64,000 nt of DNA from Eledone cirrhosa (GCA_964016885.1 OZ024742.1:213590001-213654000); one strand, 5' to 3'; counted from the first letter of the stretch, positions 9,426 to 10,822 are shown. Translations and numbers: made by a program. The notes: generated by a model from the letters alone, not told the origin.

Positions 9426-10822
9426 GTAGGAGGTGAGTTTTATTGTAGTACAATAAAGCAATGCAGATATCGTATAAGAAGCACTCTACAGTTTGTAGGC
9501 CTGGAGTATACATAATATATACATAAAATATACATAATATATACATAATATACATAATATATACATAAAATATAGCATCTTTTGGAAAAAGGTTTCTTCT
9601 GCGTCTACACACTTGAACAGTTCTCTATCCAAGATTTGCAATCTCTGTCTAAATGAAAAAATTACCATTATATCTAATTTAGATTCTATAATAAATAGAC
9701 GCACTGACTTGTTTTCTCTCTGCTTGCATAAATTCCACAAAACATTCCACAAAGTATACAGCTAATATCCAAAACTTTATCAATTTAGAATCTTTTTCTC
9801 AAAGGCACATATATATATATACTTCTTTAAAAATATACCCATCTTTCTACCTTATTTCAAAGTTATTTATTATGCATTATATAATACTTGTTACTCATTC
9901 TATATCACTCCTATTTATCACTCCCCTTTCTTCATTTTCCCTTTCGTCTCTTTTTCTTTTAATGTCTAACCCCTAATCTGTACCTTTTCTCACTGTTGCC
10001 TAACATAGAAACAATTATTACACAATACAATACATTATTACTCTATATCACCTTGTAAAAATCCTTTGTAAACATAAACATTTTTGACGTTAGATTATTC
10101 ATCCTCAATTCATTATTTTTTTCTCCTTTTCATCTAACTTATTCATGCTCATCTCACAATATATCCTTACTTACATTACTTGTTGTTCTTTTTAATAATA
10201 CATATCAACATTTTCTTTCCATCGCACATATTATTAAACCCTTAAATATTATTCTTAATACATATTAACTTTTTCTTTCCATCGCACATATTATTAAACC
10301 CTTAAATATTATTCTTAATACATATTAACATTTTCTTTTCATCGCACATATTATTAAACCCTTCAATATACAAACCTTAACTTTACATTATTTTTCTCTT
10401 CGTTAATTTTCAAATTCTTTTAATTTATACATTATCTTCCAACGGTTTTCAACCTCTCTATGTAAAACAATATATTTTTCTCAGTTATAAAAGCTATCTC
10501 TCTCTCTCTATCACCCATCTCCCCTCCTATCTCATCCTTCCTCATTATACTCCTCCCTCTCCACTTTTTACTCTCATCTCCTCCGCTTTTTCATCCCCCC
10601 CCCTCCCTAAAATTTTTTTTCCCAATATCACACATCAATCTAAAACTACTTTTCATATGTTGATTTAAAACTGCACTATCCACAAGTGTTTTTTAACCTT
10701 CATATCATGTCTTCCTATTTTATCTGATGAAAACACAAATATTATTGCATGATGATATTTGTTTTTGAAATGCGCATAATAAAATACATGGAACTCTTTT
10801 AACCATCTTTTGTTCTTTTATA
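9426..10822 (+). mobile_element. PLE family A copy with its terminal ~85 nt inverted at 9426-9510
   Basis: 9560-9765 encodes the GIY-YIG C-terminus (CNLCLNEK..INRRTDLFSLCLH); 3' UTR homologous to 3725-4813; TA tracts on both sides. Confidence 0.85.
10716..10786 (+). ncRNA. Type I hammerhead ribozyme (family A)
   Basis: TATTTTAT-CTGATGA-stem II-GAAA-TGCGCA-TA^-ATAAAATA. Confidence 0.85.

Follow-up and report, generated by a model that had tools for sequence, protein, structure and literature searches.

How does a single retroelement insertion come to lie in its target as two pieces of opposite orientation, one of which seems to hold the very end that the other lacks? This question is raised by a copy of a Penelope-like element (PLE) at positions 9427–10831 of a 64,000-nucleotide (nt) stretch of the Eledone cirrhosa genome (OZ024742.1:213590001-213654000; the whole stretch is called the window below). 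A first-pass annotation of the window read the copy as a case of twin priming, with both ends of a cut (TA)n priming on one PLE RNA. We conclude that the copy is likely to be one ordinary insertion of an endonuclease-type PLE in (TA)n, in the two-armed form that is usual for its family, and, as part of the same reading, that it was probably made by reverse transcription from both cut DNA ends at two fixed start sites. The layout itself has precedent: an inverted 5′-truncated copy with a one-sided tail is the PLE architecture described in the accessible parts of PMC8557442 and PMC3846280.

We used window 3300–4900 as the reference copy (its coordinates are marked "ref" below), compared it by BLAST with the whole window, called tandem arrays with Tandem Repeats Finder (TRF), and took unit coordinates from L107, a full-length natural copy; the host genome, of 3.0 Gb, is microsatellite-rich. 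The direct arm, or body, of the 9427 copy corresponds in collinear BLAST pieces to the reference (9621–10831 (+) to ref 3580–4819), and 9571–10831 matches residues 743–808 of the family's open reading frame (ORF) by tblastn. As the first-pass annotation stated, the body stops at an internal site near ref 4813: it ends ...CTTATATTA and is followed by TATATA..., where the reference instead reads ...CTTATATTATTTATACTCC / ...TTATATTATTTATACTCC. The BLAST match runs to ref 4819 and the true end lies between ref 4813 and 4819 (window ~10825 to 10831), not placeable more exactly because element and (TA)n share letters there. The terminal ~85 nt missing from the body are indeed present in inverted form at the other end, where 9427–9519 (-) equals ref 4807–4899; the outer end of this arm, read as the reverse complement, is ...CACCTCCTAC and adjoins (TA)n. 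Microsatellite arrays stand at both outer ends (9325–9425 and 10819–10981), again as annotated, and the two arms overlap by ~7–13 nt on the reference.

The 11-mer filler that had been noted between the pieces was recovered as a TRF array (9507–9574). Its unit, TATACATAATA (GTATACATAATATA in other copies of the subfamily), is a repeat of the inverted arm's own inner end, and a similar stretch (ACATTAAATATA in other copies) stands at the start of the direct arm; the join of the two arms probably used this likeness between filler unit and direct-arm start. The array is absent from the junctions of L019 and L048. L019 is a composite of the same kind with a similar tailed-arm end, but its direct arm starts ~25 nt further upstream and no array is present, and L019 and the 9427 copy are therefore independent events. 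Within the 3′ untranslated region (UTR) of the body, a 60-nt unit (window 10196–10369) is present in 2.9 tandem copies, as against about one in the reference.

A second composite, annotated at 34376–34642, has the same layout (34377–34647 by BLAST); its arms overlap on the reference by ~27–33 nt rather than the ~25 nt first given, and have 5–6 nt in common at the junction (TTAAAA). The copy annotated at 13363–13530 ends at the same internal site, as had been claimed (BLAST 13361–13535 = ref 4645–4819). Further (TA)n arrays lie beside these outer ends at 13176–13364, 13523–13738 and 34635–34685 (TRF).

The element has two alternative outer ends. One is the TA-rich internal site at ref ~4813–4819, the other a distal site at ref 4899 (...CCTCCTACAT), and the ~86 nt between them form the PLE "tail". 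In tandem copies the tail is followed without a break by CATTAACTTGC..., the next unit's 5′ UTR and ORF; both end sites therefore lie inside a longer RNA. Exact matches in the genome number 5,193 for the tail-less junction (26-mer body end + TATATATA; backwards control 0), 1,341 for the body-to-tail 26-mer (control 0) and 13,921 for the tail-terminus 22-mer (control 0), patterns that differ in length and variability, so that no ratios are to be drawn between them. The internal end is far beyond chance. Of the earlier proposal that arms end at UAUA-like sites, the part that stands is that outer ends lie at fixed sites, two in number; only the internal one (TTATATTA) is UAUA-like, and the tail end, CCTCCTACAT, has only 2–3 letters in common with (TA)n. 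A hairpin ahead of each start site was considered and rejected. Only the distal site has one (TTTATTG TGCTA CAATAAA, 7–8 bp, window 4868–4887, within the tail and ending 12 nt before the distal end); none comparable was predicted before the internal site, where the surrounding 51 nt fold no better than shuffles (z 0.55).

We then examined how the two kinds of end are combined, in a census of 100 ends taken from the top of each list (60 tail-less ends and 40 tail ends), all on contig C1 up to ~64 Mb and mapped by BLAST. Among the 60 tail-less ends, an inverted arm lay within 60 bp in 36 (32 tailed, 4 tail-less) and 68–2,500 bp away in 14 (11 tailed, 3 tail-less); the other 10 had no arm, or none with a 3′ end. 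For the 40 tail ends the corresponding numbers were 24 (21 tail-less, 3 tailed), 8 and 8. The 14 distant arms, mostly of a long subfamily that aligns to the reference in patches, were excluded from the pair counts. The type of the partner depended on the type of the focal end (Fisher p = 2.3e-9). With structures sampled from both ends merged, and L022 dropped as identical to L007 (a conservative choice), there were 50 unique adjacent pairs, of which 45 were mixed (one tailed and one tail-less arm), two tail/tail and three tail-less/tail-less; one of the last three, L056, is doubtful, its tail sitting 183 bp further out. Mixed pairs thus made up 45/50, as against at most 50% under independent choice of ends (binomial p = 2e-9). 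They comprise 36 distinct arm-length classes, indicating that no single amplified founder carries the result, and in most pairs the arms abut within 0–15 bp. At L056/L057 (C1:63.307 Mb), five arms lie within 900 bp and the tail of one arm is ~183 bp from its body at the internal TA-rich site, pointing to either expansion of the microsatellite there or another insertion.

Counting from the internal site, we compared the body part of the tailed arm with the tail-less arm in the 45 mixed pairs: the tailed arm was the shorter in 26 and the longer in five, and in 14 the two agreed to within 10 nt (sign test, p = 1.9e-4). The first-pass annotation had proposed that mapped copies would have paired arms that tile the RNA. 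When the sampled pairs were mapped, this did not hold: the inner end of the tailed arm lay within -50 to +25 nt of the internal site in only 12/45 (27%), six with a gap of 6–49 nt and six overlapping by 2–25 nt, about the share expected from a uniform spread over a ~250-nt short template. The remaining 33 pairs overlap by 60 to more than 1,200 nt. In the commonest class both arms extend to the same inner point, with full overlap (the 14 equal-arm pairs), and in the class with most members both arms stop at ref ~4645, where the palindrome CATATG lies (ref 4644–4649). Both composites in the window (9427 and 34377) belong to the short-tailed-arm, near-abutting class. The complementarity of their arms is one end of a continuum and does not demonstrate blocking of one cDNA by the other. 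Consistent with the census, read joints at 34377–34650 connect several tail-arm places to one ...TGTTGATTTAAAAC start; the reads over this interval gave only 40–80-nt unitigs, none of which spans the junction with 31 letters on each side, and the runs may come from the assembly's own sample.

The arms of a pair also resemble each other. In an alignment-based recount of 32 pairs with ~100 nt or more of overlap, the arms of one pair differed by 1.1% on average and were identical in 15/32, and the distance to arms of other loci was 5.2% (mean of medians). No foreign arm was strictly closer than the partner in 20/32 pairs, and eight pairs have in common 15 rare variants that occur in at most 5% of the rest. 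This likeness points to one source per pair. The earlier view that both pieces of the 9427 copy come from one event is favoured by adjacency, by the near-identity of arms and by the rule of one tail per pair.

By its sequence features, the repeat family is a PLE, as the first-pass annotation held, and apparently of the endonuclease type, with the correction that the GC-rich frame at 1927–3496 belongs to a different PLE-like element. The family ORF is AT- and asparagine-rich, and in L107 forms an 808-amino-acid (aa) frame in which inspection by eye shows motifs resembling those of reverse transcriptase (RT) and a C-terminal NLIYEC..YFGSTS..R..NH-type stretch; the motif NL(I/V)YEC...YFGSTS...R..NH was read by eye both there and in window frame 7467–8552, the protein of which gave 77,503 first-look candidates in the genome. 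A relative, P0006, 29% identical to the L107 ORF (E 8e-82), has RVT_1 at residues 209–375 (E 0.0015) followed by GIY-YIG at 577–629 (E 0.0023), both below Pfam cut-offs; across seven relatives, Pfam returned only sub-threshold RVT_1 and GIY-YIG, in one of the seven. A homologue search gave five relatives, with precomputed PF26215 and PF28514, and in atlas look-alike clusters PF01541 occurs in 28–35% of members. BLASTP of the family ORF against the neighbouring GC-rich PLE-like frame gave E 1e-6 over an FLD..S.HP block, and neither a single-sequence search of the PDB nor a profile search gave a match. The pseudo-long-terminal-repeat (pseudo-LTR) layout of PLEs was found in L109, which consists of ref 4284–4899, a 2.27-kb ORF region and ref 3520–4899; in L107, ref 4754–4899 stands directly before the ORF. 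Judged by core boxes and fold only, the terminal region appears to carry a hammerhead-like motif, in which the outer stem would be TATTTTAT/ATAAAATA; the predicted fold yields the outer and a long inner stem around both core boxes (z -2.6 in the reference copy, -1.3 in the 9427 copy).

In the mechanism that we propose, both strands of (TA)n would be cut by the element's endonuclease. From one of the 3′ ends, cDNA synthesis would begin at the internal site and yield the tail-less arm, which usually reaches furthest; from the other it would begin at the distal site and yield the tailed arm, usually shorter or equal; and the two cDNA tips would join through a few shared or palindromic letters. 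Two separate primings are needed, since a longer tail-less arm is not copyable from tailed cDNA and the tail is not copyable from tail-less cDNA. One tail per pair together with a shorter tailed arm suggests a single RNA with a leading internal and a trailing distal polymerase, so that both primers would act on the same RNA molecule; this is the least certain step. For the 9427 copy, this would mean that the trailing cDNA came to a halt after ~93 nt, and on this proposal the pieces look complementary for that reason. The strongest form of the proposal is that every insertion consists of two reverse transcriptions of one RNA from two cut ends, each at its own fixed site, with the distal polymerase trailing and displacing the internal one. 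We regard this form as conceivable but somewhat doubtful. If true, it would amount to a concerted, "one tail per insertion" type of target-primed reverse transcription, distinct from L1 twin priming and from self-priming, and a mode written more than ten thousand times in this genome.

Other routes to the same footprint have to be set against this one. In L1-style twin priming, a primer at the 3′ end is accompanied by a primer at an internal UAUA that blocks the first cDNA, and the arms tile with a small overlap or gap. The topology of the 9427 copy fits, with an inverted and then a direct piece each anchored in the target; the overlaps in the two window copies are only ~7–13 and ~27–33 nt, TTATATTA is able to pair with a (TA)n primer, and 12/45 sampled pairs are near-tiling. 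However, these 12 are no more than uniform stopping points would give, and six of them have a gap; the other 33 overlap widely, with full overlap as the mode; and CCTCCTACAT at the distal site has little complementarity to (TA)n. Twin priming is already contradicted as a general rule, and we consider it unlikely for this insertion. From the first-pass proposal, priming by both cut ends survives as better than its rivals, whereas L1-style priming on an abutting template does not. Snap-back self-priming, as proposed for rotifer PLEs, has the cDNA fold at a palindrome and copy itself, leaving a head-to-head repeat. Palindromes do lie at the commonest junctions, with CATATG at the centre of the equal-arm class and the long hairpin of the putative ribozyme at the centre of others, such as L047, and the accessible part of PMC3846280 reports palindromes at inverted junctions and favours self-priming. 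In 26/45 pairs, however, the tail-less arm reaches further inward than the tailed one, so that neither is the second arm wholly contained in the first nor is there a template for the extra part in a folded tailed cDNA; snap-back is therefore excluded as sole route. Moreover, the other arm has no tail and is 86 nt short, though a fold-back copy should reach the end of its template, and a 6-nt palindrome cannot self-fold, while it can pair two identical cDNA tips. Self-priming as the source of the locus is quite unlikely in our view.

Amplification of a founder fold-back, in which the two-armed structure would be a repeat family copied as a unit, could draw on the class with both arms to ref ~4645, which recurs (8 to 12 of 45), on an identical structure at two loci with different flanks (L007 and L022), and on the fact that (UA)n carried along at the flank of a read-through RNA would be indistinguishable from the (TA)n target it entered. 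We nevertheless hold it to be very unlikely, given the 36 arm-length classes among the 45 mixed pairs. In addition, 5′ truncation of a unit RNA would take off the outer tail end, and the variation is seen at the inner end; the tail-less arm stops mostly at ~4645 as the tailed arm varies, which central deletions in a palindrome would not produce. The most improbable of these explanations is that of two independent insertions into the same (TA)n, or a later inversion between TA-rich sites. Its appeal is that (TA)n tracts are hot targets, with several copies within the 64-kb window, and, being their own reverse complement, could mediate inversions. Independent insertions are hard to reconcile with arms that abut within 0–15 bp in most pairs, with the dependence of partner type on focal type, or with paired arms that are ~5 times closer to each other than to other copies and have rare variants in common; the 7–33 nt (or up to more than 1 kb) that both arms contain could not have been duplicated by a simple inversion. 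Overall, priming from both cut ends fits the data best, better than snap-back self-priming or two separate insertions.

Several observations weigh against this reading. The complete 428-bp structure at L007 (C1:9.94 Mb), in which a tailed and a tail-less arm each reach ref ~4644, recurs with identical sequence at L022 (C1:33.6 Mb), where the upstream flank is different; it might represent two very young events of one master, or a structure copied as a unit. The longer arm is tailed in 5/45 pairs, and L107 is a long tailed copy beside a short tail-less inverted arm, so the order of leading and trailing polymerase is not absolute. An in-vitro study of an anole PLE found no difference in start site between the strands, and the one-tail rule is not predicted by it (PMC11167929). 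The likeness of paired arms could come partly from gene conversion between inverted repeats or from one active master, and it is no proof of one RNA molecule, since two RNAs of one master could do the same. A single event per pair is something that we infer from adjacency, arm similarity and the tail rule, because target-site duplications are unreadable inside (TA)n in all sampled insertions. The census covers 100 ends from the first 64 Mb of one chromosome, collected with exact-match patterns that favour young copies, and 22/100 ends were left out of the pair counts, mostly of the long subfamily that aligns patchily to the reference. As for the nature of the element, Pfam finds nothing in the family's own ORFs (12 window frames and the L107 ORF), and Rfam gave no hammerhead family, either at gathering thresholds over the whole window or at E <= 10 over 4600–4920.

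Table 1. Coordinates of the insertion at 9427–10831, of its ribozyme-like motif and of other copies of the family in the window.
Position	Strand	Feature	Evidence
9325..9425		(TA)n/(CA)n microsatellite, target outside the inverted arm	TRF period 2, 49.5 copies
9427..9519	-	Inverted arm: last ~93 nt of the PLE (tail + ~7-13 nt upstream of the internal site)	BLAST ref 4807-4899, 91%, E 2e-31
9507..9574		Filler, 11-mer tandem array	TRF period 11, 6.4 copies, consensus TATACATAATA
9571..10831	+	Direct 5′-truncated tail-less body: ORF end + 3′ UTR	One BLAST hit, L107 unit positions 2288-3543, 93%
10713..10792	+	Hammerhead-ribozyme-like motif in the body, CTGATGA ... long stem ... GAAA TGCGCA	Core boxes by eye + fold
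10819..10981		(TA)82 microsatellite outside the tail-less end	TRF
34377..34489	-	Second example, inverted tailed arm (ref 4787-4899)	BLAST 98%
34484..34647	+	Second example, direct tail-less arm (ref 4655-4819), ending in (TA)n	BLAST 92%
13361..13535	+	Solo tail-less copy (ref 4645-4819) between two (TA)n arrays, without inverted arm	BLAST 89%
3520..4899	+	Reference copy, body + tail contiguous, then (TA)30 at 4898-4957	BLAST, TRF, sequence
6533..8833	-	Older copy, different subfamily of the same PLE, left arm of a head-to-head pair	blastn + tblastn to L107
8827..9324	+	Right arm of the older head-to-head pair (unit 1145-1641)	93.9% identical to left arm

The 9427 insertion lies next to an older head-to-head pair (Table 1), which is joined inside the ORF (unit ~1125/1145) and has both outer ends short of the normal start sites. 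Its left arm contains a 361-aa open frame (7467–8552 (-)) that by translation is the C-terminal part of the family ORF, and its right arm stops at the (TA)n that holds the 9427 insertion, so that some target may have been lost there. The possibility that 8827–9324 and 9571–10831 are one interrupted arm was rejected: identity to the minus arm is 93.9% for the former versus only ~82% for the latter.

The reference copy has at its 5′ end, at 3497–3520, a perfect 24-nt inverted duplicate of 3661–3684, 140 nt inside the copy; this snippet is internal sequence and no 3′-terminal arm, and is absent at that place from L108 and L109. The copy merely adjoins a fragment of a frameshifted PLE-like ORF at 1927–3496 (+), GC-rich and C-skewed, which has (AT)48 on its other side and is a different element from the AT-rich family. 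Inspection of its frame by eye shows GRPIVS and RYIDD as RT motifs, and YVGQTGRRLADRFTEHHRD as a block resembling GIY-YIG; Pfam gave no match on the frames of 1927–3496. L019 and L097 likewise have a GC-rich PLE-like fragment of this kind beside the AT-rich family. At 39722–40984 lies a diverged relative of the ORF of that family (40–61% aa identity, tblastn) with parts on both strands, residues 191–577 on the minus and 739–807 on the plus strand. Two frames for RT of the long interspersed nuclear element (LINE) type, at 21427–24027 (-) (866 aa, RVT_1 E 6e-29, and zf-RVT) and 35262–36059 (-) (RVT_1 E 3e-10), are unrelated to the PLE insertion.

The integration of PLEs is still largely obscure; the inverted copy and the tail, known for some twenty years, have been only partly explained. 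Young and well-preserved insertions of a single family, a very abundant one with a tail of unusual length (~86 nt) and (TA)n as its target, number in the thousands in the present genome, and their architecture is real and known. The 9427 insertion is an ordinary example of this known footprint, and the counts are a modest addition to the mechanistic question. They place three constraints on any model (one tail per pair, a tailed arm that is shorter or equal, and junctions at palindromes), argue against pure self-priming and against tiling of the L1 type, and fit the both-strand extension seen in vitro. For annotation, such two-armed structures are not to be labelled fold-back DNA transposons or assembly errors.

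As set out by Craig et al. (2021) and Arkhipova et al. (2013) in the accessible parts of PMC8557442 and PMC3846280, insertions of endonuclease-containing (EN+) PLEs have a pseudo-LTR, an adjacent inverted 5′-truncated copy and an optional one-sided tail of 30–40 bp. The E. cirrhosa family resembles them in its head-to-head inverted 5′-truncated arm, in the extension of one arm, in palindromes or short overlaps at the junction, in partial tandems (L109), in microsatellite or AT-rich targets and in a putative terminal hammerhead-like motif; by contrast, its tail is ~86 nt long. A (TA)n target is reported for Naiads in the accessible part of PMC8557442, whereas the E. cirrhosa family has a putative C-terminal endonuclease. 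The count of one tail per pair was not found stated in the literature, in which PMC8557442 and PMC3846280 were covered in part. Non-LTR retrozymes of animals are, in the accessible part of bioRxiv 10.64898/2026.07.22.740005, non-autonomous PLE derivatives defined by tandem arrays and circular RNAs; a term search of that part found "tail" absent and "inverted" once. The short ORF-less units with the PLE terminal region and hammerhead-like motif, such as the 175–255-nt copies at 13361–13535 and 34377–34647, are like retrozymes in composition and unlike them in being single or two-armed, and may be plain 5′-truncated PLE ends. Purified protein of the anole Poseidon PLE cleaves and extends both strands, with AT-rich cleavage sites, and in vitro uses two RT start sites internal to a longer RNA, the stretch between them being the tail (Frangieh et al. 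2024, PMC11167929). The E. cirrhosa family likewise has two internal start sites that delimit the tail, and priming on both strands, as we infer it here, agrees with the anole system. The start sites of the anole element have no homology to the cleaved DNA, unlike the E. cirrhosa internal site, which is TA-rich like its target, and the rule by which E. cirrhosa pairs use each site once (45/50) is not stated in the main text of PMC11167929.

A literature search combining Penelope-like and twin priming gave nothing on PLE mechanism by title or abstract. Twin priming of L1 was reportedly described by Ostertag and Kazazian in 2001 and yields an inverted and a direct piece in one insertion, with both cut ends priming and a join by microhomology, much as proposed here. 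L1 arms are said to abut with small gaps or overlaps and to use an internal primer site that varies. In E. cirrhosa, by contrast, arms come close to abutting in only 12/45 pairs and mostly overlap, up to the whole template, the start sites are fixed, and about three quarters of the sampled ends are paired.

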